Virus record (IMG/VR): IMGVR_UViG_3300043420_001594
Coordinates: 1 to 53,592 of that record
Direction: 5' to 3' (one strand)
Length of the DNA: 53,592 nucleotides
Origin: a virus
Taxonomy: Duplodnaviria > Caudoviricetes
Position numbers and translations under genes: made by a program. Positions 22,119 to 53,592 of the stretch are shown here, in pieces (the stretch's first letter is position 1; each line of letters starts with the position of its first letter). The notes below the pieces were generated by a model. That model searched no databases and was not told the origin of the DNA. It saw only the letters and a program-made list of their open reading frames with translations.

Positions 22119-23096
22119 ATGAGCAAGCTACCGAGTGTCCTGGACCAATACGACGATAACGGACTGCTGTTGCGCCGGACCTTCGATGGTAAGGACATTC
22201 CGGCAATCATCAAGACGGCCGCCGATCTTTCTAATCCGCGGGTGCGCCATGATGACGACTACGCGCTGGTGTATCAGGGCGAGTACGGCAAGGAGTATAG
22301 GCTTCCCGTCGCGGACGCGGGCAACGCCTTGGCTTCGGCGCTCTACTTTGCCGAGTACGGGGACGCGCTGCCGGCGGAGCACCAGAAGGTAGCGGCCGCT
22401 AACCTTAAGACTGCGTTGGAGTCTTTCGGTTTTGAGGTCCCGGAGCGCCTGACCAAGACCGCCGCCATCGAGTTGGGCCGTACCGGAGAGGCCGACAACA
22501 TGACGTTGGAGGCGCTGTTCGGTCTGCCCGACAACACCATCGAAGAGGTGAAGGGGGCGTTCGACGGCTGCAGTCCGCGTGGCAAGCGCCGCATGATGCT
22601 GCAGGTCAAGGAAGCGTCGGCCCAACTGCCCAGCTACATGCAGGACTACGGCCGCAATGAGATCGGCACGGATCTCGAGGCGTCGTTGGATCTCCGCAAG
22701 CTGGTGGTGCTGGAGAAGGAGGCGACGGCCAAGTTGAAGGAGCTGCTGGAGAAGTCGGCCAGCATGGATCCGGACCTCTTGGCCAGCGAGATCGAGGTCT
22801 TCGACATCGAGCACAACCTCACGCACCTGTACGGCAGGGTTCTGCCCGATCCATACGCTTCGGTGTTCGGCACCGGTTTCGGGCAAGCCGTGAAGACCGC
22901 GTCCGCGGGACCGCTTGAGATTGACGGACGCCACTACTCGTCCGACACTATCGAGGCGTTCGCCAGCAAGAGCGCCGACCGCATCAAGGATGCGTTTGGT
23001 GACGACTTCGCTGACGAGTTCTCACGCAGTCCGGTGTCAGTGCTGGCCAGCCTGCCCGTGACACACCAACAGGCCATCGCCCGGATGATCGGATGA
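22119..23096 (+). CDS. Virion-module protein with multiple K-x-A motifs
   Basis: First gene of the + strand block; IKTAA, QKVAA, TKTAA, VKEAS, EKSAS, VKTAS. Confidence 0.7.
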   Translation: MSKLPSVLDQYDDNGLLLRRTFDGKDIPAIIKTAADLSNPRVRHDDDYALVYQGEYGKEYRLPVADAGNALASALYFAEYGDALPAEHQKVAAANLKTALESFGFEVPERLTKTAAIELGRTGEADNMTLEALFGLPDNTIEEVKGAFDGCSPRGKRRMMLQVKEASAQLPSYMQDYGRNEIGTDLEASLDLRKLVVLEKEATAKLKELLEKSASMDPDLLASEIEVFDIEHNLTHLYGRVLPDPYASVFGTGFGQAVKTASAGPLEIDGRHYSSDTIEAFASKSADRIKDAFGDDFADEFSRSPVSVLASLPVTHQQAIARMIG

Positions 23097-23758
23097 TCAA
23101 GTTGTCGGAAGAGGCGGTATCGGCCAACCCGCTCACCAAGCGGGCTGCCTTTACGAACCCGGCCACCCACTCGCTCGTGCTCGGGCTCATTCTCCTCAAG
23201 GAGTTTGGGCCCGAGTACCTGGCGTGGGAGCCGGAGACCGTGTGGACCGAGGTCGAGAAGACCTGGGGCACTACCGTGTCGGAGATCAACAAAAACAAGA
23301 TCCAGGCGGTGCGACTCTGCTACGTACAGGACACGCCCTACCGAGCATGGGAAGTGTTCGAAGACATGGCGGCTGCGCTGAACGGCGTGATCCCGCGGTT
23401 TGACGCCTTACAGCGGCCGACTGCCGCCCATGCCGCCGCCGCGCTCGATATGATGCAGCAGATCCGAGAAACCCAGCTCATCAGTGATCAGATCTACCGG
23501 TACTGTGCGGCCGTTTTGATGGACACGGGTGTGGTGTGGGGTCCGGGTCCGTTATCACCGTGTAATAAATATCTGACCCCCATGGTGGGGGAGGCGCTTC
23601 AGAACCGGGTGGAATCCGCAGTTTCTCGCGGTAAGGTTCCGACCTTCGACGGAACCAACGAGGATGACACCCAGATCATGAAGTCCACGACCATCAAGGA
23701 CTACTGCGACTTCATGTCCCAGCAGCTCCTCCACCAGATGCGGCAACTGATGCCCTAA
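23093..23758 (+). CDS. Hypothetical virion-module protein
   Basis: ATGA coupling with the upstream gene; precedes the portal. Confidence 0.7.
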   Translation: MIKLSEEAVSANPLTKRAAFTNPATHSLVLGLILLKEFGPEYLAWEPETVWTEVEKTWGTTVSEINKNKIQAVRLCYVQDTPYRAWEVFEDMAAALNGVIPRFDALQRPTAAHAAAALDMMQQIRETQLISDQIYRYCAAVLMDTGVVWGPGPLSPCNKYLTPMVGEALQNRVESAVSRGKVPTFDGTNEDDTQIMKSTTIKDYCDFMSQQLLHQMRQLMP

Positions 23759-23770
23759 CGGGAGACCCTC

Positions 23771-25648
23771 ATGGCGGATGGAGTCAATCTAGGGGATCGG
23801 CGCCCACGCGCCCGATCTATCGGACGTCCAGAAACGTTCTACCCGAGCCCGTTTTTCGATATCGCGCAGAACTACATCCCACGGTCCGTTAAGGACACGT
23901 TCGATTGGTGTCAGTTCTACCAGTTGACCAACCCGCTGATCAGCAACGTCACCAACAAGATGTCGACGTACGCGATCACGGACCTGGTGTATGACGACGA
24001 AAATGAGGGTGTGGTTGACGAATACAGGGCGTTGTTCGAGAAGCAGTTTCGTCTCAGGACCTTTCTGGTAGAGACGAATTTGGATCGCTTTACCTACGGT
24101 AACTCGTTCGTGTCGGTCTCGTTTCCGTTCATCAAGATGCTGCAGTGCCGGCATTGTGGCGTCTCCAAGGAGGCCAGCAAGCTGAAGTATCAGTTTCGCG
24201 GTTTCAAGTTCGTGATCGACTGCAAGGACTGTGGGCAGTCCGGTGACGCCCTCGCCAAGGACGAGCCGGTCAAGAATCGGATGAAGATTCAGCTGATCCG
24301 CTGGAACCCCAAGAGCATCTCACTCAAGCACAATGAGTTGACGGGCGAAACCAAGTACTACTACTCGATGCCCCGCCAGATCAAGAACGAGATCATGCTG
24401 GGCAAACGGGACGTCCTGCAACAGACCCCGCAGGCCTTCATCGACGCGCTAGCTGCCGGAAAGGCGATCAGTCTGGACTCCAACAAGATCTTCCATGCCA
24501 GACGTCCGTCGGTCTCGCGGGATCCGTACGACAATGGCTGGGGCGCCCCCATGCTGCTGCCGGTCCTGAAGGACGTGTTCTTCCTGCAGGTGTTGAGGAA
24601 GGCGCAGGAAGCGGTGGCGATGGAGCACATCGTGCCGATGCGCACGATGTTCCCGCAGATTACGGCCGACGGTAACAATCCGTACGCCCACATCAATCTG
24701 AAGGACTGGCAGAAAGAGGTCGAGGGCCAGATCAAGAGGTGGCGTCAGGACAACAACCACATCCCCGTCATGCCGGTTCCGATCGGAACGCAGACGATTG
24801 GTGGTCAGGGTAGGGCCATGCTCCTGTTCCAGGAGTTGCGTGCGATCTCTGACGTCATCATCGCGGGCATGGGGGTGCCGACCGGTTTCGTGTACGGCGA
24901 GGCCATGTACTCGGGCGCCAGCGTGAACATGCGGGCCCTGGAGAACGAGTTCTTGGGCAACCGGCAGGACATGTTGCGGCTGGTTGAGTTCGTCCGTGAC
25001 CGTGTCGCCACGTTCTTGGACTTGCCGGCAATCCGCCTGCGTTTCAAGCCCTTCAAGATGGCAGACGACATGCAACGCACCCAGATGCTGATGCAGATGA
25101 GCCAGTCTGGATACGTATCGCGCCGCACCATGCTGCAGTCGATGGATTTCGACTACGCGACTGAGATGGAGATCATCCAGAGCGAGATGTTGGACGCGCA
25201 GAAGAACCAGCGCAAGCAGGCCATCGCGCAGGCGGAGACCCAGGGCGAGGCCATGCTCGCCAGCACCAGGTACCAGATTGAGGCCCAGCAGGCACAGCAG
25301 CAGGCCGCGGCAGAATCGCAACCCCCCATTCCTCCGGGAGGCGCCGCCCCACCAGAACAGGTGCCGCCCGAGCAGGCGCCCCCACCACCCGAAGAGGCGG
25401 CACCACCTCCAGCGGCCGGAAACCAAGTGGTCGATCTGTTCGCGGAAGCCAAAAAGATCAGTAGCCAGCTAAAAAAGATGGATGAGGTTGAGCGGTACCA
25501 GGCTCTGGCCCGCATCAAAGCCCAGAATCCAGACCTATACATGCTGATCAACCAGGCCGTGGCTGGAGGGAACGGCAATAACCGTCCCCTCCAGCCGTTG
25601 CCCGAGAAGCTACCCCCCAGGGCTGGACCCGGTAGGGCGCAGATTTAG
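23771..25648 (+). CDS. Portal protein with inserted Zn-ribbon
   Basis: Portal-like order of elements: NPLISNVTNKMS, YGNSFV, IFHARRP...WGAPMLLPVLK, IIAGMGVP...YSGASV. CRHC...CKDC insert; Pro/Gln-rich tail. Confidence 0.75.
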   Translation: MADGVNLGDRRPRARSIGRPETFYPSPFFDIAQNYIPRSVKDTFDWCQFYQLTNPLISNVTNKMSTYAITDLVYDDENEGVVDEYRALFEKQFRLRTFLVETNLDRFTYGNSFVSVSFPFIKMLQCRHCGVSKEASKLKYQFRGFKFVIDCKDCGQSGDALAKDEPVKNRMKIQLIRWNPKSISLKHNELTGETKYYYSMPRQIKNEIMLGKRDVLQQTPQAFIDALAAGKAISLDSNKIFHARRPSVSRDPYDNGWGAPMLLPVLKDVFFLQVLRKAQEAVAMEHIVPMRTMFPQITADGNNPYAHINLKDWQKEVEGQIKRWRQDNNHIPVMPVPIGTQTIGGQGRAMLLFQELRAISDVIIAGMGVPTGFVYGEAMYSGASVNMRALENEFLGNRQDMLRLVEFVRDRVATFLDLPAIRLRFKPFKMADDMQRTQMLMQMSQSGYVSRRTMLQSMDFDYATEMEIIQSEMLDAQKNQRKQAIAQAETQGEAMLASTRYQIEAQQAQQQAAAESQPPIPPGGAAPPEQVPPEQAPPPPEEAAPPPAAGNQVVDLFAEAKKISSQLKKMDEVERYQALARIKAQNPDLYMLINQAVAGGNGNNRPLQPLPEKLPPRAGPGRAQI

Positions 25649-25840
25649 ACCCATCAGCATGATGGACCTGTCACCACACCGATCGCACTTCCCCATCTGG
25701 TAGTGCGTCGATGGAATGTCATAATGGCGGACGCATTTTGGGCACACCCAGAGGGCTGTCCACGACTCGAAGTGGCGGCAGTCCCGGCAGTCCTTGGGAT
25801 CCGCGCACCACCCGTCCTTCAGACTACATCGGGTCCTCAT
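25610..25840 (-). CDS. Small Cys-rich (multi-CxxC) protein
   Basis: CRDC, CPKC, CDRC; TAATG coupling to the upstream 35-aa ORF. Confidence 0.6.
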   Translation of the reverse strand: MRTRCSLKDGWCADPKDCRDCRHFESWTALWVCPKCVRHYDIPSTHYQMGKCDRCGDRSIMLMGLNLRPTGSSPGG

Positions 25841-25947
25841 TACTTTTCCGGGTCGAGCGCGTCCTCGACGGCGTCATCAAATTCGCCCAGGCTTGACATG
25901 CCGCAGCCGGGGCTCCACTCGACTATCGCCTCAACCCTGTTCTTCAT
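25840..25947 (-). CDS. 35-aa acidic peptide (MKNRVEAIVEWSPGCGMSSLGEFDDAVEDALDPEK)
   Basis: Hand-translated; GGAGGAG RBS directly downstream of promoter copy 3. Confidence 0.55.
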   Translation of the reverse strand: MKNRVEAIVEWSPGCGMSSLGEFDDAVEDALDPEK

Positions 25948-25949
25948 GG

Positions 25950-26033
25950 TAGACTCCTCCTGGAGAGCGGATAAAGTTGGATAGACGTGTGCTCTCCATC
26001 ATTCTTATACCCATGCAGAGACCCGAACTTGCC
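25950..26033 (-). promoter_or_regulatory. Repeated promoter + leader hairpin, copy 3 (divergent from the RNAP gene)
   Basis: CATCATTCTTATACCCA...CCG...TTGC has the same CTTAT-to-TTGC spacing as copies 1 and 2. Leader stem TGGAGAGC/GCTCTCCA. Confidence 0.6.
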
Positions 26034-26044
26034 AGGAGGCCAGG

Positions 26045-36749: not shown

Positions 36750-36751
36750 CC

Positions 36752-37921: not shown

Positions 37922-39721
37922 ATGAGTCTGCTGCGCTACATCATGAAGCATGCACAGGTGACGCCTTCGGCCGCCAAGCCGGAGGACAAGCCAGCTGTCG
38001 AGCGCGGCAATAACGTCCCCACCATGAAGCCCGACTTCAAGCCGATGGCCCATCAGGAGGCCGCGGTACAAAAATTATTCGATAATAAGGGGCGGCTGAT
38101 CCTAGCCCATCAGATGGGATCCGGTAAGACGCTGACCTCGATCTACGGGTTCGAGAAGATGCGCCAGTTCGGCAAGGCCAATAAGGCGATCGTCGTGGTG
38201 CCGGCGGGTCTCCGGGAAAACTTCGCAAGAAGCGGTGTGGAAAAGGCGACCAACTCTTCGTTTCAGGTTATCGGATCGTCCGAAGAAAAGAACCGGATGA
38301 GCAACTATGTTCGTCCGGACGAGGTCGACCCCAACAAAACCTACACGATCGTCTCGTACGACCAGATGAGACGCGACCCCGTAGGTCTGATGCAGCGAAC
38401 TGGTGCCGACACCATCATTGCGGACGAGTTCCACAAGACCCGCAACGACCGGTCTCAGGTGTACCGGTCGATGATGCAGGCCCGACAATACGCCACCAAC
38501 TTCATCGGAGTCACCGCATCCCTGATCAATAACCGCCCGGATGAAGTTGCCAAGCTCCTGAACTTATCAGAGGGAGGACCTCCAGTGTCTCCCCGAGACT
38601 TCATGAACCGGTACACCCGGACGGTCGGCACCGCGGAGGGGTTCGGGGGCAGCAAGAAGCGGGTCATCGGGATCAACAATCCTGAAGAATTCGCCATGAA
38701 GGTGGTGCCACGGGTCGACTACTTCGAAACCGGAGACATTCCTGGCGCTGCAATGCCCAGAAAGGACGTCAAGAATGTGTACGTCCCGATGTCTAAGGAG
38801 CAGTACCACCTGTACAGGCTGGCGCTCAATAAGCTGGGGCCCGTGCAAGAGTACATCACCCGGCGCGATCCCAACATCACGCTGAAGGACGCGGACAAAC
38901 TGTTTACCCAGTTGACGCAAGCACGGCAGATCAGCAACTCCATCGCCATGGGTCGCAAGGACGTGTCGGTAGACCAGGCGGCTGAAAGGACTCCGAAGGT
39001 CCGCAAGGTGCTGCAGGATACGGCCCAACACCTGCAGGACCGCCCCGACAACTCCGTGGTCCTGTACAGCAACCTGATCCGCGGTGGCGTGGACGTGCTC
39101 TCGGCTGGACTCAAGAAGGCCGGTATCCCGCATGCGCTCTTTATTGGCGCGGGTACTGAGTTGGGGGACGGAAAGGTCACCAACGTCAGTCGCTCGCAGG
39201 GAGTCGAAGACTTCAAAGCCGGTAAGGTCAAGGTGATCGTGTTGTCGGGCGCCGGCGCAGAGGGGCTGGATCTCAAAAACGCCACTGCCTTCTATTCGCT
39301 TGACGGTCACTTCAATCCTGAAAGGATCATGCAGGCAGAGGCACGGGCTCGGCGTCTGGGCGGGCAGGCCCACCGTCCTCCAGAACAGCGGGTTGTTGAC
39401 GTTCGCCGATATCAGTCGGTGGTCCCGGCGTCAGAGCAACCCGGTGTATTCGGAAAGATGCTGGGTAAGAAGACCCCACAAACCACTGACGAGTGGGCCT
39501 ACAACGTTGCTGGACGAAAGTTTCAGACAGCTCGCCAGTTCTATGACGTGATGCACAAGCCCACCAAGTACATTCGCAAAGAGTACTACACCAGGCGGGA
39601 CGGGACCCGAGCGATCCGCTACACCTACGCCCAGCAAGTTAGTCAGCCGAGAGGCCTATTTAGGAAGTTGTTCGGTCCAAAGGACACAGCCACCGCACCC
39701 GTTAAGCCGCTTGTTGGGTAA
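37922..39721 (+). CDS. SNF2-family helicase/ATPase
   Basis: AHQMGSGKT, IADEFHK, TASLINN, GAEGLDL, FNP...QAEARARRLG. Confidence 0.85.
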   Translation: MSLLRYIMKHAQVTPSAAKPEDKPAVERGNNVPTMKPDFKPMAHQEAAVQKLFDNKGRLILAHQMGSGKTLTSIYGFEKMRQFGKANKAIVVVPAGLRENFARSGVEKATNSSFQVIGSSEEKNRMSNYVRPDEVDPNKTYTIVSYDQMRRDPVGLMQRTGADTIIADEFHKTRNDRSQVYRSMMQARQYATNFIGVTASLINNRPDEVAKLLNLSEGGPPVSPRDFMNRYTRTVGTAEGFGGSKKRVIGINNPEEFAMKVVPRVDYFETGDIPGAAMPRKDVKNVYVPMSKEQYHLYRLALNKLGPVQEYITRRDPNITLKDADKLFTQLTQARQISNSIAMGRKDVSVDQAAERTPKVRKVLQDTAQHLQDRPDNSVVLYSNLIRGGVDVLSAGLKKAGIPHALFIGAGTELGDGKVTNVSRSQGVEDFKAGKVKVIVLSGAGAEGLDLKNATAFYSLDGHFNPERIMQAEARARRLGGQAHRPPEQRVVDVRRYQSVVPASEQPGVFGKMLGKKTPQTTDEWAYNVAGRKFQTARQFYDVMHKPTKYIRKEYYTRRDGTRAIRYTYAQQVSQPRGLFRKLFGPKDTATAPVKPLVG

Positions 39722-39968: not shown

Positions 39969-40451
39969 GTGCCGTTCACTAGTGAGAAGCAACGCCGCTT
40001 TATGTTTGCCGAGCACCCCCGTATCGCCAAGCGCTGGGCCCACGAGAACCCAGAAGGCGACGAGGGCCTCCCCACCTACGCGCATGGGAAGACCACATCC
40101 CCTGACCTCAAGAAGCGCTGGGAAAGGTTGAAGGCTCGTCGTAGTATCGGTAAGCCTCAGGAGGGTGAAGAAATGAAGTACAGTGACAAGGGGGTGGCCG
40201 CCCCATCCAAGGGCCAGAAGTACGCGAAGAAGAAGATGGCTGGCCTGTCGGACCTGATCAAGAAGGCGCAGCCTTCTGGCCCCGTCAATGTCCGCGAAGC
40301 CAGCAATCCCAAGATGAGCTGCATGACCTGCAAGTACTTCACTCCCCTGTCGGGCAACCGCGCGGGCCCAGGTATGTGTGGTGTGGGGTCGAGGCCCGTC
40401 CCCGTCAAAGGCACGGATGTCAGCGATTCGTATGAGTCGAAGGTGGTGTGA
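39969..40451 (+). CDS. Basic protein with C-terminal CxxC domain
   Basis: MPFTSEKQRRFMFA N-terminus; CMTC...C domain similar to 41322..41537. Confidence 0.65.
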   Translation: MPFTSEKQRRFMFAEHPRIAKRWAHENPEGDEGLPTYAHGKTTSPDLKKRWERLKARRSIGKPQEGEEMKYSDKGVAAPSKGQKYAKKKMAGLSDLIKKAQPSGPVNVREASNPKMSCMTCKYFTPLSGNRAGPGMCGVGSRPVPVKGTDVSDSYESKVV

Positions 40452-40452
40452 C

Positions 40453-41049
40453 ATGATGGGAAACAAGGAAAAGGCCAAGCTCTTGGCCCGTTTCGCCAAG
40501 GTTAAGGAGGCCGACGGTATGATGCCCGAGGCCGAAGATGAGGGCGAGATGGAGAACGGCAGCGTTGGCGGAGACCCCGCCGGGATGCTGTGCCAGGTTC
40601 TCGGTATGCTGTTGGCGATGCGGCAGAACTATCACTCCAGCCACTGGCAAGTCAGCGGTCCCAACTTCTATGGCGACCACCTGATGTTCAGCAAACTGTA
40701 CGAGTCTGTTAGTGACGACATCGATACTCTCGGAGAGAGGCTGGTGGCCAAGTATGGAGCCGACAAGGTTGACGGCGCCAAATTGAGCCAGACGCAGGCC
40801 CAGATTCTCATGGATCTGGCCCAACAGGCGGACCCGGTTCAGCGCGGTATCTCTTCAGAGAAGGCGTACCAGGCTCTGGTCAAGAGCGTGTACGAGGCCC
40901 TGAAGGAGATGGGTGCGCTCTCGCTCGGCTTGGACGACTTCCTGATGGCGTCAGCCAACACGCACGAGACCAATGAGTACCTACTTGGTCAACGTGCCGG
41001 CGGTACTGGCGGCGGTGTCTCGATCACAATGCTGCGAAAGGCCATGTAG
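40453..41049 (+). CDS. dps: Dps/ferritin-like protein
   Basis: HSSHWQVSGPNFYGDHLMFSKLY...DIDTLGER matches the Dps ferroxidase signature (H, H, D, E). Confidence 0.8.
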   Translation: MMGNKEKAKLLARFAKVKEADGMMPEAEDEGEMENGSVGGDPAGMLCQVLGMLLAMRQNYHSSHWQVSGPNFYGDHLMFSKLYESVSDDIDTLGERLVAKYGADKVDGAKLSQTQAQILMDLAQQADPVQRGISSEKAYQALVKSVYEALKEMGALSLGLDDFLMASANTHETNEYLLGQRAGGTGGGVSITMLRKAM

Positions 41050-41537: not shown

Positions 41538-41740
41538 ACCGTCACGGTCCACTTCTGCACCTGCACCCGGGCACCCGGGATCATGTGTCGGACCAGCTGT
41601 TTGACCGACTCCTTTTCCGCGTGGGCGAGCGGCCACCTGATGTGTAGGATCAGGGTATCGCCTTGCTCCTCGTAACGATCCAGTGTATTGCCGAGGGCGC
41701 GGGACAGCATCGCCACGACCCCGGAGAAACGCGTGTTCAA
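41528..41740 (-). CDS. Possible small antisense gene
   Basis: Protein-like 70-aa ORF filling the gap before the terminase; overlaps its uncertain start. Confidence 0.3.
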   Translation of the reverse strand: MNTRFSGVVAMLSRALGNTLDRYEEQGDTLILHIRWPLAHAEKESVKQLVRHMIPGARVQVQKWTVTVQS

Positions 41741-43406
41741 AGTTCACCCCCGGCAAACCCAACAAGTATCCGCCGCATCCCTGGAACTCTTTCCGTCCGA
41801 GTTCACGAGCCACATCATGCGGATGCCGCATGAAGGGGCGCTGGCCCCATTCTCATTCACCGGTCGAGAGTACCTGATACCTGTCTACGATACACCGCAC
41901 CCGCGGGTGCTGCTGATGTTTGCGCGTCAGTCCGAGAAGTCAACAACCCTCGGCAACAAGATCTTGGCGCTGTCGTGCCTGCGTCACCACTTCAAGTCCC
42001 TATTCGTGAGTCCCTCACAACAGCAGACCGAGGTGTTTAGTCGTGACAAACTGTCGTCCCCGCTCAACCTGTCGGAAGACCTGCGCACGTTCTTGGACAA
42101 GAGCGCCAACAACGTGCTGTTCAAGCGGTTCATCACCGACTCCAGCGTGACGTTGAGGTACGCGTTTCTTCACGCCGACCGTACGCGCGGTATTCCGGCA
42201 GACGCGCTGTTCTTGGACGAGATCCAAGACATCTTGACGGACGTGATCCCGATCATCGAGGAGTGTATGTCGCACTCCCCCTACCAGCTCATGACGTATT
42301 CGGGCACCCCAAAATCACTCGATAATACGATCGCCTACTACTGGAACACCTTCTCGACCCAGAACGAGTGGATGATCCCGTGCGACCGGTGCGGTGGTGG
42401 TGACTACCGGCACTGGGACGTGATCGGTTACGACAACATCGGTCCTGAGGGACTGATCTGCAGTAGATGCAAGAAGGGTATCGACCCTCGGCATTCAGAT
42501 GCCCGGTGGGTATCGCAGAGGTCTGCGCGGTGGTTGCAAGCACCAGATGGAATTCCATTTGAGGGGTACCGGATCCCCCAGATCCTGACCAACTGGGTCA
42601 ACTGGCCCAAGGTCCTGGACAAGAAGAATCGATACGGCAAGGCACAGTTCTACAACGAGGTGCTGGCGCTACCGTACGACTCCGGCGACAAGCCCATCAA
42701 ACGGGAGACCCTGCTGGAACAGTGCAGCGGCATCTCGTTTGCGGATTCCGTCAACTTCTCGGGCAGATCAACCCTGTACATGGGAATCGACTGGGGCGGC
42801 ACCACCAACGCGGGGGGTGGTGAGGAGGGCGGCGTTAGGAAGTCCGCCCCCGCCAGCAGCTACACCGTGGTATCAATCGGCGGATATCTGGGCGGCAAGT
42901 TCCAGTACATCTACTTCCGGCGGTTCGAGGGTGAGGAGGCGGTCATGGACAACATGCTGCCCGTCATCATCCAGCTGGTAGATCGATACAAGATCTCGAT
43001 CATCGGTACCGACTACGGCGGTGGCCTCCACCCGAACGACCGTCTGATCCGACAGTTCGGTATCCGCCGTGTGGCTCGCTATCAGTACGTCAATACCCGC
43101 AAGATCTACTTCAACAAGGACCTGCACCACTGGATGGTCAACCGGACAGAAGCCCTCATGGCCCTCATCAACGCCATCAACCGTAAGGACGAGATCCGAT
43201 TCCCCACATTTAGTGACTGGGAATTCCCTTTTGCGCAGGACCTGCTGTCAGTCTTCACCGAGTACAACAGCTCCAACACCCAAATGATCATCACGAAGGC
43301 GCCGGGCTCCTCTGACGACACCATGCACTCCATGATGTACTGCTGGCTGGCCAGCATGATCGAGCACCCACGGCCCGACATTCTGGCTGCGGACCGAACT
43401 CACTAG
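41688..43406 (+). CDS. terL: Terminase large subunit (lambda gpA-like, with Zn motif); start uncertain
   Basis: ARQSEKST (Walker A variant), RGIPADALFLDEIQD, SGTPK, CDRC...CSRC, FYNEVLALPY, MGIDWG, DDTMHS. Confidence 0.85.
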   Translation: MPRARDSIATTPEKRVFKVHPRQTQQVSAASLELFPSEFTSHIMRMPHEGALAPFSFTGREYLIPVYDTPHPRVLLMFARQSEKSTTLGNKILALSCLRHHFKSLFVSPSQQQTEVFSRDKLSSPLNLSEDLRTFLDKSANNVLFKRFITDSSVTLRYAFLHADRTRGIPADALFLDEIQDILTDVIPIIEECMSHSPYQLMTYSGTPKSLDNTIAYYWNTFSTQNEWMIPCDRCGGGDYRHWDVIGYDNIGPEGLICSRCKKGIDPRHSDARWVSQRSARWLQAPDGIPFEGYRIPQILTNWVNWPKVLDKKNRYGKAQFYNEVLALPYDSGDKPIKRETLLEQCSGISFADSVNFSGRSTLYMGIDWGGTTNAGGGEEGGVRKSAPASSYTVVSIGGYLGGKFQYIYFRRFEGEEAVMDNMLPVIIQLVDRYKISIIGTDYGGGLHPNDRLIRQFGIRRVARYQYVNTRKIYFNKDLHHWMVNRTEALMALINAINRKDEIRFPTFSDWEFPFAQDLLSVFTEYNSSNTQMIITKAPGSSDDTMHSMMYCWLASMIEHPRPDILAADRTH

Positions 43407-46015: not shown

Positions 46016-47608
46016 ATGCTGAAACTGATCACACTGCCGGGCGTCAGCGATACCGGGGACATCTTGATTCAGGCGATCTTTCCGGGAGCTCCGCTTGTCA
46101 AAACGGCTTCCGCGGCCCTCCATCCGGAGATTCAAAAGTACCTGGGCGACCTGAAGTCGAAACCTGAGAAACTGTACGTGCTGGTCAACGCGCTGGGCGC
46201 GGGGGAGTGGTACGGCAGCAACATCAACGGCGACTACTTCGAGGAACGGGAACTCAACACACCGCAGGGTTCTGAGTTCGGGTTTCGCACGTTCTTGGAC
46301 TCAGGCGTCTACCGACACCACGTCAACAAGGACATTAAGAAATCGTTCGGCAAGGTGATGGTGTCGGTCTACAACCCCATCATGCACCGAGTCGAGCTGG
46401 TCATTGAGATTGACCGGGCTAAGGCTGCGCAAGAGGGCCACGGGGATCTGGTTGACCAACTGGACGCCGGCAAGAACCCGGCTGTCTCGATGGGCTGCCG
46501 GGTGGCGTTCGACGTCTGCAGTATCTGCGGAAACAAGAGCAAGACCCGCAACGATTACTGTCTGCATGCCAAGACAATGATGAATCAGGTCCTACCCGAC
46601 GGTAGAAAAGTGTATGTTCTGAACCCCAACCCCAAGTTCTTCGACATCTCCTTCGTGCTGATCGGGGCGGACCGCACCAGCTACGCAATGGCAAAGGTGG
46701 CGTCGGTGTACGGCGTATCACCGGGTAATATGTTGTCGGCGGACTTGGCGGAAGAGTACGGTTTGCGGGATCGCTCATCCGTCACCATGCTGGCGGAAAA
46801 GCTGGCCAACAAGCAGAAACTCTCCAATATGGTCAAGAACCTGCCCGCCATTTCGGCCAAGGTGATGCCCGGCATCACCGGACAGGAACCCAACCTACCT
46901 GCTGAACTGTTGGATCGGCTGGCCCAAAAGCCTCTCCCCTCCGTCACCACTACGCTGTCAGCCTCAGGGATCGTCTTGAAGCCTGCCGAATACCAGCGTA
47001 TCGTTCTGATGAAGATGGGGCAGGCCGACAAGGCCGCTCGTCTCGCGAAACTTGGGTCGGTGTTCCGCCCCAACGGGCATGCCGATCACTCGATCCGGTA
47101 CCTAGACGCTCGGCACTACGACGTGGACGTTCGGGATATGGCGATCCCCTACTTGGAGAAGAGGTCCGCCTTCGATCCCGTTCTCAGTCGTAGACTTCAG
47201 AAGGCCTCGGCATCCTCGCGCACGCATGAGCAGTTTGCAGATGACGAGTTGCTCGATAAGATCGCATCTGGGTACAACGGTTACCGGGAGCAGATGTTGG
47301 AGAACATCAGTACCCTGGTGGCCACAACAACGGGCAGGGATCCAACCCTGCTCACGGCGCTGTCTGGCGCAGACCTCGAAGGGATGTTCTTGGGCAACGG
47401 TCTGGCAAAATCAGCGGAGGTGAGCCCCCCGCAGGCCCTGCTAGGCGCGGTACCATGGGCATACCTTTACGGAGCCTTCGGTGGAGGTTCTGGGGAGGGT
47501 ACTGACAAGGCAGAGTCGTTCGTCGCTAAGCACCCGCTGTTGGCGGCGTCCATTTTGGCTGGCCTCGGGAAACTGAGTGCTGGCCTGGTGAAGGCAAAGT
47601 TGGTTTAG
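46016..47608 (+). CDS. Prohead (maturation) protease, HK97/assemblin-like, with Zn finger
   Basis: SNINGDYF...YRHH...FGKV...VELV...AVSMGC.V..DVCSICGN...CLH...FFDISFV..GAD; upstream of scaffold candidates and MCP. Confidence 0.7.
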   Translation: MLKLITLPGVSDTGDILIQAIFPGAPLVKTASAALHPEIQKYLGDLKSKPEKLYVLVNALGAGEWYGSNINGDYFEERELNTPQGSEFGFRTFLDSGVYRHHVNKDIKKSFGKVMVSVYNPIMHRVELVIEIDRAKAAQEGHGDLVDQLDAGKNPAVSMGCRVAFDVCSICGNKSKTRNDYCLHAKTMMNQVLPDGRKVYVLNPNPKFFDISFVLIGADRTSYAMAKVASVYGVSPGNMLSADLAEEYGLRDRSSVTMLAEKLANKQKLSNMVKNLPAISAKVMPGITGQEPNLPAELLDRLAQKPLPSVTTTLSASGIVLKPAEYQRIVLMKMGQADKAARLAKLGSVFRPNGHADHSIRYLDARHYDVDVRDMAIPYLEKRSAFDPVLSRRLQKASASSRTHEQFADDELLDKIASGYNGYREQMLENISTLVATTTGRDPTLLTALSGADLEGMFLGNGLAKSAEVSPPQALLGAVPWAYLYGAFGGGSGEGTDKAESFVAKHPLLAASILAGLGKLSAGLVKAKLV

Positions 47609-48293: not shown

Positions 48294-48400
48294 GCTCAAC
48301 CCATCACCTGGTAATAAACTGGTGCGGTGGGTTGGGCGGACGATAGCCTCGGTCGCGGCCCACCAGGTAGTCGCTGAGACTGGGTGGTGGGCCGCGACCG
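48294..48400 (+). promoter_or_regulatory. Tandem stem-loops in intergenic region
   Basis: Stem 1 GCTCAACCCATC/GGTGGGTTGGGC with G-U pairs. Stem 2 is a perfect 16 bp (48350-48365/48385-48400) just before the AGGAGAGG RBS. Confidence 0.65.
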
Positions 48401-48419
48401 GACGGCAGGAGAGGTCGGG

Positions 48420-49100
48420 ATGTCATCGAGTAAACTGATCCAAAGCCTGATGGGCGCCAAGCCGGTCACCAAGACCGCGTCGGCTGAGCCCGGTCTGACG
48501 GACCCGGTCTACGTTGAGAAGTTGGCTTCCGCCGTCGACTTCATCCACGACCACTACGAGACCTTGGACATGGCCAAGGTGGCGGCGGCCAAGAGCGTCC
48601 CTGCTGCGGAAAAGATGCCGGCTAAGGAGATGGAGGTCACAAAGGCCATCACGGCTCCACCGGTTGACGACAAGATGGCCGACAAGGTCCGCGCATCTCT
48701 GGCGGAGAGCCTGAAGAATCGGCTCAAGAAGAAGGAGGCTGAGGCCTCCGTACAAGACGACGCAGTTGTCCAGTCAGTGCTGGGCAAGCTGTTGCGGATG
48801 CGTGCTGAGGTAGAGGCTCCGGCCGAAGAAAAGGCCGAGAAAGCCCCCGAGCAGCAGTCGCAAACTGAACCTGACTCCCCTGTGGAGGAGGAGACTGAGG
48901 TCAAGGCCGCCAGTTTGGCAGACTTGTCCTTGGCGGACGTACTGGAAGGTGCGCTCCGGGCCAACGAACTTGAGGAGGGCGTCTCCAGGGAACGCTCGAA
49001 GACTGCAAGTGTTCGTGGCGAAAAAGGGCCAACGGCCCGCAAAGCGGCTGTCCAGACCCTGAAGCAGGGCTTGATGGCCAAGTTCGGTAAGGAGGCGTAA
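48420..49100 (+). CDS. Scaffold/core-like protein with K-x-A motifs
   Basis: RBS before ATG 48420; TKTASA, EKLAS, AKVAA, VKAAS, SKTAS. Confidence 0.65.
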   Translation: MSSSKLIQSLMGAKPVTKTASAEPGLTDPVYVEKLASAVDFIHDHYETLDMAKVAAAKSVPAAEKMPAKEMEVTKAITAPPVDDKMADKVRASLAESLKNRLKKKEAEASVQDDAVVQSVLGKLLRMRAEVEAPAEEKAEKAPEQQSQTEPDSPVEEETEVKAASLADLSLADVLEGALRANELEEGVSRERSKTASVRGEKGPTARKAAVQTLKQGLMAKFGKEA

Positions 49101-49104
49101 ACAC

Positions 49105-49452
49105 ATGGAACGGTTGGATGAAAACTCCGTCCGTCAAGTCCTCTCCCAGGTGGGTCCGGTTCTCCGGGCACTCGTGGAAGAGAACGTGAAGCTAGCGAGT
49201 GCTTTGAAGGAAGCGCAGCGCGCCGAACAGGCGGAAGAGATCGTGACCATGATGGATGCTCGTGGTCTCAGCGATAGGTCGGTTCCTTTTAAGCAGAAGG
49301 TGGCAGCTTTGCTATCTTCTAAGAAGGACCTCGGCGTCGTCAAAGAGGCTCTGGCAATCGTCACCCCCGACATGTCCTTTGCTTCGTTGTCGGATGTTCC
49401 GGACAACGATGCCACCGACACGCTCGAGGGCTACCTGCTCTCGGGGCAGTAA
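49105..49452 (+). CDS. Head-module helical protein
   Basis: AAGGAGG RBS; VKLAS. Confidence 0.65.
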   Translation: MERLDENSVRQVLSQVGPVLRALVEENVKLASALKEAQRAEQAEEIVTMMDARGLSDRSVPFKQKVAALLSSKKDLGVVKEALAIVTPDMSFASLSDVPDNDATDTLEGYLLSGQ

Positions 49453-49474
49453 TCAGTAACTTCGGAGGTTCAAA

Positions 49475-50074
49475 ATGGCAGCTAAGACGATTAGTGCGAC
49501 TCGTCGCCGCAACGTCACGCCCACCTCGTCGATCCTTCGGATCGTGACGCGGGATGTGGACTGCAGCGCGTTTCCTGTAGCACCTGAGGATGGTCAGTTT
49601 GTAATCACCGCGGGCGACACCGCGGGCACCGGGTTCAGCGACTGGGCTAATGGTACGCCCTACGTGTTTTCGGATGCGACTGCGAACAACGTGACCGCTG
49701 AAGACGCGATTGGCTCAAGCATCAAGATGGTGTGGTCGTCTGCTCTGCAGACCGACCGCCAGGCTCTCGGCAACACCAAGGTGCCGGTGCTCTTCTTGGG
49801 CGGCGTGGAAGTGGAGTGCCAACTCCTCAATGCTGACGACAGCCTCGCGCTCAACCACGCCAACTACTACCCGGCCGGCACGTTGGTGACGGTCAAGAAG
49901 GCGTCGTCGTCTGTGCAGGGGACTGCTAACCGTCTGGTCATCAACCCGCTGGCGTCTGGCCACTATGGTTGGGCCGTTGGCTACGTGACCAAGACCACCA
50001 GCGACACGGCGGCGGACGGTAAGTCCGTCACCATCATGCTGTACGATCAGCCCCGCAAGGTCGGCAACTTCTAA
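49475..50074 (+). CDS. Probable capsid decoration/minor head protein
   Basis: GGAGG RBS; beta-rich; immediately upstream of the MCP. Function inferred from position. Confidence 0.55.
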   Translation: MAAKTISATRRRNVTPTSSILRIVTRDVDCSAFPVAPEDGQFVITAGDTAGTGFSDWANGTPYVFSDATANNVTAEDAIGSSIKMVWSSALQTDRQALGNTKVPVLFLGGVEVECQLLNADDSLALNHANYYPAGTLVTVKKASSSVQGTANRLVINPLASGHYGWAVGYVTKTTSDTAADGKSVTIMLYDQPRKVGNF

Positions 50075-50092
50075 TCCTAAGGAGGACACACA

Positions 50093-51301
50093 ATGAACCA
50101 GAATGTACCAGGAGAGGTCCTCAACGAGCTATTCTTGACGAAGCTCGACACTGAGGCCGGCAAAGAGAAGATCGCTCAGCTGGGCTCGGACTACATCCGT
50201 GACCGTCTCCGTGAGGAGTCGTTCTCGGCCAAGGTCCTGGCCAAGCGTCAGGTCTCGCGTTCGGAGCTGCAGGTCAGCGTCAACCACGACTACTTGGTCA
50301 AGATCGTTGAGATCGAGCCCCAGAGCCGTGCGATGTCGATGAGCTTCCGCGGTCAGCCGAGCGTCAAGTACTACACTGGCGATCGCTTTGAGTGCGCGTT
50401 CCACACCGTTGGTTCGCTGCGCTACGAGCAGACGGAACAGGAGCTGATGGCGTACTCGATGCCCATCACGCAGATCATCCGTCAAAACATCGTCAACGAC
50501 ATCGCTGAGGTTGAGGACCGCGTGTTCCTCGGCCACATCGAGTCGGCGTGCCAGGCGCTGCAGAAGGATGCCAACAGCATCGCTCTGACCGCGGCGTTCG
50601 CGGATGCCACGGCCTTCACGGCCCGCAACGTCGCCAAGACCTCTGGTGGCGTCAAGGAAGTGGGCAAGGCCAAGGGCATCGACGCCATCGCCAACACCGC
50701 TGCCGCCAGCGATGCTGCGGGTCTGTCGGAGAACCTGATCTTCCCCGTCCAGAAGGACGACATGATCAAGTTGTTCCAGCTCTTTACGGGCACGGGCAAC
50801 CGTGGTTCGCGTCTGCGCTGCGATCAGTTCCTCATCACCGACACCGACTTCGAGGACATCAACTCGTGGGCGCTGGCGGACATGGGCGACAAGATCGTGG
50901 GCGAGACCAGCGTCGACGGTTACAAGTACTCGACGGTGATCGGCCGCAAGTTCATCCGTACCCTGAAGACGGACATCCTCCGTCCCGGCAACATCTACGC
51001 CTTCGCGGCGCCGGAGTTCCTGGGCGGCTTCATGGTGCTGAACAAGCTGCAGTTCTACGCTGACAAGGAGCGCAACCGCGTTTCGTTCGAGGCGTGGGAG
51101 GACATCGGCATGTACATCGGCAATATCGCTGGTTGCCGCAAGCTGGAGCTGTACGCGGGTGCGGTTGAGGTGGCGGCCACCAATACCGCGACCGAGTCGG
51201 CTTACCGCGCCAAGTACCTGCCGGTGGCTGAGGATCAGCTGGGCAAGAAGAACAACCTCGTCGCCGAGGGTGGCACCTTCCCGAATATCCAGCAGTTCTA
51301 A
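50093..51301 (+). CDS. Major capsid protein (HK97 fold)
   Basis: AAGGAGG RBS, strongly biased codons, 402 aa. Follows the protease-scaffold-decoration order; DIAEVEDRVFL helix and WEDIGMYIGN C-terminal strand. Confidence 0.75.
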   Translation: MNQNVPGEVLNELFLTKLDTEAGKEKIAQLGSDYIRDRLREESFSAKVLAKRQVSRSELQVSVNHDYLVKIVEIEPQSRAMSMSFRGQPSVKYYTGDRFECAFHTVGSLRYEQTEQELMAYSMPITQIIRQNIVNDIAEVEDRVFLGHIESACQALQKDANSIALTAAFADATAFTARNVAKTSGGVKEVGKAKGIDAIANTAAASDAAGLSENLIFPVQKDDMIKLFQLFTGTGNRGSRLRCDQFLITDTDFEDINSWALADMGDKIVGETSVDGYKYSTVIGRKFIRTLKTDILRPGNIYAFAAPEFLGGFMVLNKLQFYADKERNRVSFEAWEDIGMYIGNIAGCRKLELYAGAVEVAATNTATESAYRAKYLPVAEDQLGKKNNLVAEGGTFPNIQQF

Positions 51302-51317
51302 GCTGGGGGTCCTGATG

Positions 51318-51361
51318 GGTGCGCCCCGTACATCCTGGTGGTGTGCGGGGCGTACCTGTTT
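51318..51361 (+). terminator. Hairpin after the major capsid gene
   Basis: 17-bp stem (51318-51334/51340-51356) with G-U pairs that form only on the + strand RNA, followed by TGTTT. Confidence 0.65.
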
Positions 51362-51457
51362 CCGGGGATGGTTGGGTTGACGACCAAGTCACTGATAGAC
51401 TGGGTGCGGATATTATCCTAAAGTGGCGTGGCCATTCACGGCACATAGGAGTCGAAC

Positions 51458-51907
51458 GTGATTTACGTCATCACCAACCTGATCCACACCTCTGGCGACC
51501 AGCATCGTCGTGGGCATCGTCTTCGCGAGTTCCGCAAGGGGCGCGTTCAGATTGGTCCTCGTAGCATCGATGAGGGCAGGTCCGCCTCCTTCTCGGAAGA
51601 GATGTACAACCAGTACAAGGAGCGGATCGACCACTACCAGCAGATCGGTATGATCAAGGTGGTGTCGTTCGGCGGCCCGGACCCCGTCATCCCCGCCGAG
51701 GATCCGGTCATCCTCCAAGAGACCGTCAGCGTGGTCGAGGCGGCGTCGGCGTCGGTGGAGCCGGCGCAAGAGGCAGCGGCACCCGAAAGTGTGTCGGAGC
51801 CGGCCGAGATCCCGGCCCCAGAGAAGTCGGATTCCGTTGACCCAGAGGAAGAGGTGCCGGCCGCGCCGGCAGCCAAGCGCAGGGGCCGTCCTCCCAAGGA
51901 GAAGTAA
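51458..51907 (+). CDS. Hypothetical protein with acidic linker and C-terminal AT-hook-like motif
   Basis: AGGAG RBS; ends KRRGRPPKEK. Confidence 0.65.
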   Translation: MIYVITNLIHTSGDQHRRGHRLREFRKGRVQIGPRSIDEGRSASFSEEMYNQYKERIDHYQQIGMIKVVSFGGPDPVIPAEDPVILQETVSVVEAASASVEPAQEAAAPESVSEPAEIPAPEKSDSVDPEEEVPAAPAAKRRGRPPKEK

Positions 51908-52450
51908 ATGGCGGACAATACCGACAAGGCTGAGCTTGGTATCCAACCGACGGTTGCGGCGGGTCTTCCGCCCAGACTGTTGCACGTCATCGCGATGGTG
52001 CGGGCCAAACTCCGGGACTACCCAGAGCTAAACCGACTGGTGGCGGGGCAGGAGACTAGTGATCGTCAGATCGCCTTAGCCATCATGGAGGCGATCGATG
52101 ACTACAACACCACGCCCCCGCTCATCGATCCCGTCACCCTGGACACTCACCCATCCATCTCGCTGCTGGTGAACGGCACCATCATCTATGTGCTGGAGTC
52201 GGTGGGTTTGCTGCAGACCCGCAACCAGATGAACTACGCAGACGGGCAGGGCGTGCAGGTCGGGGTCAACGACAAGTCCCCCATGCTGATGCAGTGGATC
52301 GGTCTGTTCCGCGGACAATATGAGCAGAAGAAGATGCGGCTCAAGCAGGCCGTTAACCTGAAGGGCGCGCTCAATCAGGGAGGCGTTCCATCCGAGTACG
52401 CCTTCGTGAACGGATTCTTCGACAACCTCTCAGACGGTAACCCGAGGTAA
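51908..52450 (+). CDS. Probable head-tail adaptor/neck protein
   Basis: VRAKLRD...SDRQI..AI..AIDDYN pattern and post-MCP position. Confidence 0.55.
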   Translation: MADNTDKAELGIQPTVAAGLPPRLLHVIAMVRAKLRDYPELNRLVAGQETSDRQIALAIMEAIDDYNTTPPLIDPVTLDTHPSISLLVNGTIIYVLESVGLLQTRNQMNYADGQGVQVGVNDKSPMLMQWIGLFRGQYEQKKMRLKQAVNLKGALNQGGVPSEYAFVNGFFDNLSDGNPR

Positions 52451-52452
52451 CG

Positions 52453-52857
52453 ATGCCGCAGATTCCTTACAAGGACACCCAGACTCTGGTCGTCCCTTTG
52501 GCCAACCCCAACGTGATTGTGTCGCTACCGATCCCGGACAGCCAACACTACCTCGGCTTCGCTATTCAGATCATCGACGCCAAGTGTGACGTCGGCAATC
52601 CTGCGGTCGATGGCGGATTTCGGGTTGAGGCGAACCTGGGCGGAGTAGACAGCAACGGAGATCCCGCGTGGGCTGTCGTCTACTCGGCGGACTTCTACGC
52701 TCCCCAAGATCCCCACTTTCATCAGGGTGAGGTCATCACCTTTAGCCTTCGCGCCCCTGCTAAGAATGGGATCAGAGTCGTCTCGAAGAGCGCCGTCACA
52801 GCAGGCGGCAAGGTCATGGTCTCCATGTACGAGCGTGCTTACCCGCCGCAGGTTTAA
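52453..52857 (+). CDS. Hypothetical beta-rich virion protein
   Basis: GAGGT RBS; in operon. Confidence 0.6.
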   Translation: MPQIPYKDTQTLVVPLANPNVIVSLPIPDSQHYLGFAIQIIDAKCDVGNPAVDGGFRVEANLGGVDSNGDPAWAVVYSADFYAPQDPHFHQGEVITFSLRAPAKNGIRVVSKSAVTAGGKVMVSMYERAYPPQV

Positions 52858-52881
52858 TATTATCAAGTAATGGGGCAGCGG

Positions 52882-53112
52882 ATGTCTGATCAAATTGCAC
52901 GCACATCCCCAGACGACCGTCGACTAACGGCGGCTGCGGAGTTCTTTCGGTCCTTGAAGAAGGAGGCCGGAGTTCCTGCAGCCGGCGGAATCCGCGCAGC
53001 TGCCCGTCGGGCAGTTCGTGGGCTCGTCCATACCAACCCGCTCCCGACACGGGGCGAGTCGGCGTTAAAACAATCCCTCGAGGCGAGGCTAACCAAGGCC
53101 CTGCGGGCCTAA
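52882..53112 (+). CDS. Small basic protein with K-x-A motif
   Basis: FFRSLKKEAG followed by an Arg-rich segment. Confidence 0.55.
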   Translation: MSDQIARTSPDDRRLTAAAEFFRSLKKEAGVPAAGGIRAAARRAVRGLVHTNPLPTRGESALKQSLEARLTKALRA

Positions 53113-53127
53113 CGTAAGGAGACCGTG

Positions 53128-53592
53128 ATGAACGCGATTGGAAAGTTTCAGTTGAAGCAGGCGCTGACCGAAGAGCTGACCAAGGAAGCAAAGAAGAAGG
53201 GCCTTGGTACCGCGGCTGAGGGCGCGACCTTGGGTGCCTTGTTGGCCGGACCCCTAGGTGCTGCTATTGGTGCGGGGATTGGTCGCAAGATGGGCAGTGG
53301 CAAGGGTGAGCGGTACAAGGGCTCACCCGCCGCTCGTGCTGCTGGCGGGGCACTCCTCGGCGGCCTCCCTCTCGCAGTACTGGGTGTCCGGCTTGGCGCT
53401 AAGGGCCATCTCAGGTCCGCCATCGCCTCGCACATCGCGGGCACTGCAGGTAGCGTGATCGGTGCCCGCCGAGCTGCGGCGAGCGCGTACGCCGGAAAGA
53501 ATAAGCACGCCTCGCCCGCCTCTGGTGCGGCGGTCGGTGGCGCGCTGCTGGGTCCAGTGGGCGCGATGATCGGTGCCGCAGCAGGAAAGAAG
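53128..53592 (+). CDS. Basic glycine-zipper protein, 3'-truncated
   Basis: AAGGAG RBS; hand translation MNAIGKFQLKQALTEELTKEAKKKGLG...GALLAGPLGAAIGAGIG...; open to the window end. Confidence 0.7.
   Translation, partial: MNAIGKFQLKQALTEELTKEAKKKGLGTAAEGATLGALLAGPLGAAIGAGIGRKMGSGKGERYKGSPAARAAGGALLGGLPLAVLGVRLGAKGHLRSAIASHIAGTAGSVIGARRAAASAYAGKNKHASPASGAAVGGALLGPVGAMIGAAAGKK

Follow-up and report, generated by a model that had tools for sequence, protein, structure and literature searches.

What a phage head retains, and the form each of its proteins takes there, is set by prohead proteases. Experimentally worked-out cleavage rules for such enzymes are few: L/I-x-E in T4, (S/A/G)-x-E in phiKZ and SPN3US, and x-x-A/S, cut between Ala and Ser, in the herpesviruses. 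Here we describe a candidate for a further rule in the IMG/VR virus record IMGVR_UViG_3300043420_001594, a 53.6-kb phage fragment (53,592 nucleotides, GC about 0.60) which was analysed over its whole length and is called the window below. The 530-residue product of the gene at 46016 (proteins are referred to by the first position of their genes) is likely to be a prohead serine protease with a T4 gp21/assemblin-type fold, acting on the signal (L/V/M/I)-(E/V)-Lys-(T/V/L)-Ala/(Ser/Ala/Gly), with the predicted cut after Ala. That one short motif directs the processing of many head proteins is already well known from T4, phiKZ and SPN3US; what differs here is the rule, with Ala at P1 and Lys at P3, and the lineage in which it occurs.

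For T4 head processing we relied on PMC9026906. The window protease shares with T4 gp21 its fold, an invariant His...Ser pair and the position of its gene, upstream of scaffold-like and capsid genes in the head module. The predictions made below for the window also resemble T4 in the many substrates, the multiple cuts in scaffold-like proteins, the N-terminal propeptide of the capsid protein and the self-processing at both ends of the enzyme. In contrast, T4 gp21 cuts after Glu, with Leu or Ile at P3, whereas the window protease is predicted to cut after Ala, with Lys at P3. The latter protein also differs from gp21 in its length of 530 residues, its folded helical C-terminal half and a Cys-x2-Cys-x10-Cys-x-His cluster.

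A second comparison is with phiKZ gp175 and SPN3US gp245. There, as predicted here, many head and ejection proteins are processed and several copies of the motif lie inside propeptides; the encoding of a virion RNA polymerase among the head genes is a further likeness. According to PMC10052503, gp245 of SPN3US cuts off a C-terminal propeptide of its own, 64 residues long, as well as several propeptide fragments. The self-cut of about 64 residues has a near counterpart in the 63 predicted for the window protease. The phiKZ and SPN3US sites, (S/A/G)-x-E or A-x-E, nevertheless have Glu at P1 where the window has Ala, and the window lineage is a clade separate from these phages. In herpesviruses the protease-scaffold precursor pUL26 contains release and maturation sites (PMC4498786). 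The window protein is predicted to be built along similar lines, with a scaffold-like part joined to the protease, a first site immediately behind the protease domain, which is like the release site, and another about 60 residues before the C-terminus. Its predicted scissile pair, Ala/Ser, is likewise shared with assemblin, whose sites include YLQA/T and VQA/S in pseudorabies virus. Assemblin, however, has Val, Leu or Ile at P3 rather than Lys, its structural similarity to the window protein is weak and its hosts are animals, not bacteria. Literature searches outside the subscription journals recovered the work on T4, phiKZ and SPN3US; a K-x-A rule or an R-T-A-G rule turned up in none of them, and neither did anything on processing by a Bxz1-type protease.

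The fold was assessed with an AlphaFold2 model of the 46016 protein, built from 59 homologues and with a mean predicted local distance difference test score (pLDDT) of 77.6, in which the C-terminal half forms a well-predicted helical domain. Model residues 1-216 match T4 gp21 (5jbl_A) in VIA-align with Z 11.6 (149 of 165 residues aligned, root-mean-square deviation (rmsd) 3.3), and Foldseek matches the model to the same structure (5jbl) with probability 1.00, a template modelling (TM) score by target of 0.63-0.66 and E 1.7e-3. The herpesvirus enzymes come next but lie far lower, at Z 5.3 for varicella-zoster virus (1vzv, 118 aligned, rmsd 4.0) and Z 4.4 for human cytomegalovirus (8j3s), both under the trust level of the tool. 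A Pfam search with the protease gave no family at E<=0.01. A sequence profile search of the PDB with the protease family yielded no relevant match, the best being a KorA domain at E 0.2.

Conservation in the protease was measured in two alignments. One contains 103 of 120 listed homologues, the 17 dropped being those outside 480-600 residues, mostly intein-bearing. The other has 48 rows, comprising the window protein and 47 further cluster representatives (450-700 residues, drawn from 124 new ones) of 33-48% identity. The candidate catalytic residues, His102 and Ser158, are invariant in both (Table 1), and the latter is indeed the Ser of the VSMG sequence to which the original prediction had pointed. 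Asp166, Cys168, Cys171 and Cys182 are likewise invariant in the 103 homologues. The three cysteines belong to a Cys168-x2-Cys171-x10-Cys182-x-His184 cluster within the gp21-like domain (residues 168-184, 46517-46567, + strand). Position 184 is His in 93 of 103 homologues and Cys in 9. The cluster is a probable metal-binding knuckle. As regards the His-Ser-His triad of assemblin, His184 seems to belong to a Cys3-His/Cys metal site and not to be a catalytic His. We know of no comparable Cys knuckle in T4 gp21. The same Cys-x2-Cys-x10-Cys-x-His spacing is seen in gp90 of Mycobacterium phage Alice. Many protease homologues, among them P0049, P0051, P0083, P0099, P0100 and P0102 and many representatives of 800-1700 residues, contain inteins or homing-endonuclease domains (PF05203, PF14528, PF14890). 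Their profile matches are split near positions 67, 90-100 and 162, the last adjoining Ser158-Met-Gly-Cys161.

Motif frequency was assessed against 1000 within-protein shuffles, which keep the composition of each protein, for the 33 proteins of the head module and for the 23 window proteins encoded outside it (0-22 kb). In the module K-x-A-[SA] occurs 39 times against 11.8 expected (z 7.9), K-x-A-S 24 times against 4.5 (z 9.2), K-x-A 108 times against 66.0 (z 5.7) and the loose pattern h-x-K-x-[AS], where h is hydrophobic, 74 times against 44.2 (z 4.8). In no case was a shuffle as high (0/1000 for each). For the other 23 proteins the corresponding counts are 4 against 4.7, 3 against 1.8, 30 against 30.1 and 26 against 19.7, so that the enrichment over a composition-matched background put forward in the original prediction is borne out. 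When every three- and four-residue pattern was scanned without bias, against shuffles of unchanged composition, KTAS came first in the module (8 against 0.23, z 17), followed by EKTA, K.AS (24 against 4.4), TASA and KTA; nothing comparable appeared in the other window genes. The forms named beforehand (KTAS, KTAA, KVAS, KLAS, KEAS, KQAS) are all present.

The excess is concentrated in about 7-11 module proteins. By counts of K-x-A-[SAG] it reaches p<0.01 in 22119, 33988, 47716 and 48420, and p<0.05 in 49105, 43489 and 41068. The loose pattern is present in 25 of the 33, mostly at chance level (6 against 9.2 in the RNA polymerase), and the earlier figure of about 20 motif-bearing proteins was therefore too generous. 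K.A[SA] is absent from the RNA polymerase, the terminase, the helicase body and the capsid protein body. The five proteins for which multiple copies had been claimed do contain them, the numbers of K-x-[AS] being 11 against 3.5 after shuffling for 22056/22119, 21 against 9.1 for 33952/33988, 13 against 6.6 for 46016, 6 against 2.0 for 47695/47716 and 9 against 5.9 for 48384/48420.

Only half of the A/S alternative first proposed for P1 survives. K-x-S is not enriched in the module (37 against 43.7), from which we take P1 to be Ala. Nor are the rules of the known enzymes, offered earlier as models, reflected in the motif counts of the module, where the T4 rule [LI]-x-E (81 against 75.8), the phiKZ rule [SAG]-x-E (152 against 144.4) and the herpesvirus rule [VLI]-x-A-S (15 against 14.2) are not enriched and K-x-A is enriched instead. 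The reversed or neighbouring patterns SA.K, R.AS, K.GS, E.AS, K.S, K.G and A.A show no enrichment. Across the 39 K-x-A-[SA] sites, each of the four codons for Ala occurs and Ser is encoded from either of its two codon boxes, and the corresponding DNA pattern is frame-specific, with 24 of 29 hits on the + strand in frame 0 and 3 hits on the - strand. The signal therefore lies at the level of protein, not of DNA. Around 44 window sites and 556 sites of related loci the preferences are Leu, Val, Met or Ile at P5, Glu or Val at P4, Lys at P3, Thr, Val or Leu at P2, Ala at P1, Ser over Ala over Gly at P1' and Ala at P2'.

The protease itself contains four conserved K-x-A sites, at the end of its N-terminal leader, directly after the protease domain, in the linker and before the C-terminal piece (Table 1). 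Their Lys columns in the 48-row alignment are likewise well filled (K29 46/48, K227 40/48, K262 45/48, K465 37/48). These four sites coincide with the only four segments of the model with pLDDT<50. Thus, 4 of the 8 K-x-A sites of the protease fall inside the 10% of residues so predicted (p 0.005), and when the models of the protease and 33988 are pooled, 9 of 24 sites fall in 14% of residues (binomial p 0.004).

Orthologues of the predicted substrates were taken from 24 IMG/VR loci and, for 33988 and 22119, from protein searches; among the IMG/VR relatives, 33988 was found in 5 loci and a 22119 homologue in no locus. K-x-A sites are retained in orthologues of 30-50% identity, and in nine pooled families conservation is 0.63 for the Lys of K-x-A and 0.44 for the remaining Lys (p 0.002), the corresponding values for Ala being 0.59 and 0.40 (p 0.001). 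The motif is thus conserved in homologues of both protease and substrates, a check that had been proposed beforehand. In 22119, six K-x-A-[SA] sites stand against 0.57 expected, a number reached by none of 2000 shuffles, and in 68 orthologues the sites at K32, K90, K113 and K164 are found in 64, 61, 68 and 66, respectively. For 33988, with 10 K-x-A-[SAG] sites against 1.38 expected, eight sites are present in 40-59 of 59 orthologues, among them K14 (55), K364 (49), K426 (50), K467 (57), K524 (51), K567 (59) and K608 (53); sites 14, 233, 549/550 and 567 lie in pLDDT<50 segments of its model. A Foldseek search with that model produced no credible PDB fold (best E 2.5e-3, TM 0.10-0.20, rmsd about 29). 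The three sites of 43489 are nearly universal in its 22 orthologues (K111 22, K147 21, K195 20).

In 47716 (4 K-x-A-[SAG] against 0.49 expected, p~0.0005) four sites are found in 19-20 of 20 orthologues, and the alignment shows EKTA[SAG] islands among acidic linkers of varying length, with extra tandem copies in some orthologues. In 48420 (5 against 1.14, p~0.005), EKLA/S is present in 18 of 18 orthologues and K174 in 16 of 18. The N-terminal KLA/G of its orthologues has been lost in the window, where KTA/S lies 7 residues downstream. Such site turnover suggests that selection acts on the presence of a site rather than on one particular residue. The KEKIAQ sequence noted near the N-terminus of the major capsid protein (MCP) is there, as ...GKEKIAQ... 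at residues 23-29, and would mark the end of a 28-residue propeptide.

Among cultured phages, the protease has its nearest relatives in Salmonella phage Arash (45% identity) and in Vibrio phages D69, D181 and D148 (37%), with the cluster C mycobacteriophages further off (28%). Arash and the D69 group have the gene order of the window, with portal, RNA polymerase, helicase, head proteins, protease, scaffold-like genes and MCP, although the RNA polymerase, fused in the window, is split in Arash (gp206, gp216). In related loci K.AS is above the shuffle mean in 25 of 26 and reaches z>=2 in 20; L026 has no excess and L005, L006, L016, L021 and L024 are under z 2. Five control patterns show no consistent excess. 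Among annotated genes K.AS is found 16 times against 4.2 in Arash, where LVKE and VKEA are among the top patterns, and 20 times against 4.2 in D69, where KVAS and KEAS are near the top. At the capsid site the counterparts are LVKEA/G in Arash and LTKEA/G in D69. The signal is kept across Salmonella, Vibrio and marine or other metagenome relatives with GC of 0.44-0.63. In Mycobacterium phage Alice the form in excess is RTAG (7 against 0.32, z 13.8), with R-T-A-G sites in gp81, gp82, gp89, gp90 and gp98. Alice gp90 (L032, 14905-19440), a protein of 1511 residues annotated as hypothetical, has the homologous protease domain in its first 300 or so residues, with KTAG directly after it. The protease family is very large, counting 4,581 clusters (50% identity) at E<=0.001 and still 2,206 at E<=1e-30.

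A subset of sites lies close to N-termini. Of the 33 module proteins, 16 have K-x-A within their first 40 residues where shuffling predicts 7.6, a number equalled in 2 of 2000 shuffles being the observed 16; outside the module, leaders are found in 4 of 23 genes against 3.5 expected. Conservation of such leaders is seen in four families, those of the helicase, 45108, 44496 and 48420. In the helicase, the K-x-A occupies the same column in 17 of 20 orthologues, and is counted in 20 of 20 within 2 columns; two of those rows, the Arash helicase and a fragment from locus L021, nevertheless have no leader at all in the alignment. The Arash RNA polymerase begins MPKSA/S. Helicase and RNA polymerase are among the most abundant proteins of an Arash virion preparation, the products of the polymerase genes gp206 and gp216 being the most abundant (PMC10585845). 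In T4 the capsid targeting sequence (CTS) is a 10-residue leader ending in a gp21 site (PMC9026906). The leaders of the window resemble it in being short and N-terminal, in ending in a predicted protease site and in standing on unrelated proteins, and by this analogy they probably also bring their proteins into the prohead core, although this targeting role is less well supported than cleavage.

Taken together, these data suggest the following course. The protease and its substrates would assemble into the prohead, where the protease would cut itself at K29-x-A, K227-x-A, K262-x-A and K465-x-A, freeing the catalytic domain from the helical C-terminal half and from the 63-residue tail. It would chop the scaffold-like acidic proteins 47716, 48420, 49105 and 43489, and also 22119 and 33988, at several sites, trim the 28-residue propeptide off the MCP and remove N-terminal leaders of 8-35 residues from other head-module proteins, including the SNF2 helicase. 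The proposal that 46016 is a protease acting on these motifs agrees with its fold, with the self-sites that bracket the domain, with conservation in orthologues and with the joint spread of signal and enzyme in the lineage; that the bond after Ala is cut, and by 46016, we infer.

Several observations weigh against this proposal. A cut at site 1 would detach two N-terminal strands that the structural alignment (model range 1-216) assigns to the gp21-like fold. For 49105 (0.72 against 0.94) and the MCP (0.47 against 0.59), the Lys of K-x-A is less conserved than other Lys. The conserved 33988 sites at 364, 426, 467, 524 and 608 fall within strands or helices that are folded with confidence in the model and may be kept for structure, not cleavage, so that not every K-x-A need be cut; taken alone, 33988 shows no significant placement in loops (p 0.15). 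There is some redundancy among the related loci, several pairs having identical ORF (open reading frame) coordinates, and the figure of 25 of 26 therefore overstates their independence. The control pattern KA.S is in excess in D69 (13 against 5.3) and in L016 (9 against 3.5). In Arash virions the reported coverage is 86.6% for the MCP, 84.9% for gp222, the protease homologue, and 100% for the helicase, figures by which processing is neither shown nor excluded (PMC10585845); the sample was probably impure, since 116 'virion' proteins are listed. The terms 'protease', 'cleav' and 'proteol' have 0 occurrences in the main text of that paper. Finally, a second phage protease may be encoded elsewhere in the genome, beyond the 53.6-kb window.

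The sites in folded elements raise the question of whether K-x-A is instead a docking or assembly motif for scaffold, portal, capsid protein or the helical half of the protease, which is left uncut while the scissile bonds lie elsewhere or are few. Besides the conserved sites in 33988 helices and strands, this would explain the K-x-A at K415 of the protease, inside helix 411-437, and the enrichment of K-x-A in leaders would be expected from a pure targeting signal too. Yet the small P1/P1' pair, the variable P2, the disordered linkers and the presence of sites at both ends of the protease domain have the look of protease sites, and the EKTA islands in acidic scaffold-like linkers match the multi-cut pattern described for the scaffolds and propeptides of T4 and SPN3US. 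We therefore consider an uncut docking motif unlikely.

Rather less likely again is cutting by an enzyme other than 46016, either a host protease or a second phage protease outside the contig. The phage is probably about 170-190 kb long and the window covers 53.6 kb of it, which leaves room for the latter. Against this, the best-conserved K-x-A sites are in the 46016 protease itself, and the signal is kept across hosts and the GC range given above but turns to R-T-A-G along with the diverged protease of a mycobacteriophage; the signal thus follows the phage, not the host. Lastly, although the richest proteins are rich in Ala and Lys and partly repetitive (47716 with 19.9% Ala, 48420 with 16% Ala and 10.5% Lys), it is highly improbable that composition, internal duplication within low-complexity scaffold proteins or a repeat at the DNA level gave rise to the excess, since shuffles that keep composition never reach the counts, reversed and neighbouring patterns are not enriched, codons differ between copies of a frame-specific pattern, and sites are conserved in the unrelated, non-repetitive protease, MCP, helicase and 22119.

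Cleavage by the 46016 protease as the preferred explanation is also compatible with the setting of its gene (Table 1), which lies in the head module with those for the portal, the large terminase subunit, the acidic proteins 47716 and 48420 and the MCP. The RNA polymerase gene, placed between portal and head proteins, encodes beta-like (Rpb2 domains 2, 3, 6, 7) and beta'-like (Rpb1 domains 1, 2, 3, 5) modules in one 2088-residue ORF. The polymerase has 0 K-x-A-[SA] sites, and 16 K-x-[AS] against 24.2 expected. It has 4 Cys in all (1739, 1801, 1808, 1811). In 43489, Cys 13, 17, 19 and 21 lie between two K-x-A sites (residues 10-38), that is, inside a predicted propeptide. The idea that Cys is confined to propeptides fits 43489 and the helicase, which has no Cys, but was rejected as many module proteins have Cys in their predicted mature parts. 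The head module also encodes a ferritin/Dps-like protein (40378-41049, + strand; Pfam Ferritin 1.3e-6, phrog_3636 DNA binding protein 3.3e-13), and the replication module a Cas4-type exonuclease (9919-10707, - strand; phrog_1706 6.4e-32) and a Holliday junction resolvase (7000-7551, - strand).

Table 1. Protease, predicted cleavage sites and leaders, and other genes of the window. A slash marks a predicted cut; fractions are numbers of homologues or orthologues with the residue or site.
Feature	Position	Strand	Details
Prohead protease candidate, 530 residues	46016..47608	+	phrog_18299 head maturation protease, E 8.9e-9, residues 69-226
Predicted pieces of the protease			1-31 leader; 32-229 protease domain; linker; about 265-467 helical domain; 468-530 C-terminal piece (from the model)
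Protease site 1, K29-T-A31/S	46100..46108	+	End of N-terminal leader; K 103/103, A 103/103; pLDDT<50 segment 29-32
His102, candidate catalytic His	46319..46321	+	Invariant, 103/103 homologues and 48/48 rows
Ser158 (AVSMG), candidate catalytic Ser	46487..46489	+	Invariant, 103/103 homologues and 48/48 rows
Protease site 2, K227-V-A229/S	46694..46702	+	Directly after protease domain; K 101/103, A 101/103, P1' Ser 70/103; pLDDT<50 segment 217-237
Protease site 3, K262-L-A264/N	46799..46807	+	In linker; K 91/103, A 86/103; pLDDT<50 segment 255-270
Protease site 4, K465-S-A467/E	47408..47416	+	K 102/103, A 93/103; pLDDT<50 segment 460-470; cut would free 63-residue C-terminal piece
Predicted substrate, 325 residues	22119..23096	+	Six K-x-A-[SA] at residues 32, 90, 113, 164, 212, 259
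Predicted substrate, 655 residues	33988..35955	+	10 K-x-A-[SAG] sites including 16-residue leader ending K14-V-A
Leader of 33988			MQLTRKIEGPKFEKVA/A
Predicted substrate, 332 residues	43489..44487	+	K111-Q-A/S, K147-T-A/A, K195-Q-A/Q
Acidic scaffold-like protein, 189 residues	47716..48285	+	Between protease and MCP in head module; EKTA[SAG] islands in variable linkers
Acidic scaffold-like protein, 226 residues	48420..49100	+	Between protease and MCP in head module; five K-x-A-[SA]
Small head-module protein, 115 residues	49105..49452	+	K29-L-A/S in 17/17
MCP	50093..51301	+	tblastn match to Arash gp226, annotated major capsid protein
MCP site K26-I-A28/Q	codons 50168-50176	+	Predicted 28-residue N-terminal propeptide; same column 17/19, within 2 columns 19/19
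SNF2-type helicase	37922..39721	+	Pfam SNF2-rel_dom 4.4e-19
Helicase leader MSLLRYIMKHA/Q, 11 residues	site codons 37946-37954	+	
Protein of 200 residues	44496..45098	+	Leader MSSLVKIA/D, 11/13
Protein of 212 residues	45108..45746	+	Leader MSRFSEIVKEA/S, 14/21
Head module	22 kb to window end	+	33 proteins, 10,180 residues
Portal protein (weak match)	23771..25648	+	phrog_2739 E 3.3e-4; gene order as for Arash gp204 portal
Fused beta-beta' multisubunit-type RNA polymerase, 2088 residues	26045..32311	+	Pfam Rpb2_6 1.1e-52, Rpb1_2 3.5e-27, Rpb1_5 1e-24
Large terminase subunit	41688..43406	+	phrog_675 3.2e-60; K-x-A-[SA] sites: 0
Replication module	5.9-22 kb	-	Family A DNA polymerase, primase, DnaB-like helicase, UvsX-like recombinase, Cas4-type exonuclease

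A broader evolutionary scenario can be offered tentatively. In a very large, mostly uncultured lineage, a T4-type prohead protease may have moved its cut from Glu to Ala, with a basic residue at P3 (K-x-A/S, or R-T-A/G in the cluster C mycobacteriophages), near the Ala/Ser rule of the herpesviruses. At the end of a leader of 8-16 residues, the signal may then serve as a portable tag by which enzymes such as the SNF2 helicase, and perhaps the RNA polymerase of Arash, are loaded into the capsid to be injected. Were this true, the cargo set of any phage of the lineage could be read from its sequence and the leader used to package foreign proteins. The K-x-A rule could be tested in the cultured relatives, namely Arash in Salmonella, the D69 group in Vibrio and cluster C phages in M. 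smegmatis. It would link the specificities of the T4-type and herpes-type enzymes, provide a candidate packaging tag and, in thousands of uncultured phages with genomes of about 170-190 kb, make the mature forms of capsid, scaffold and cargo proteins predictable.

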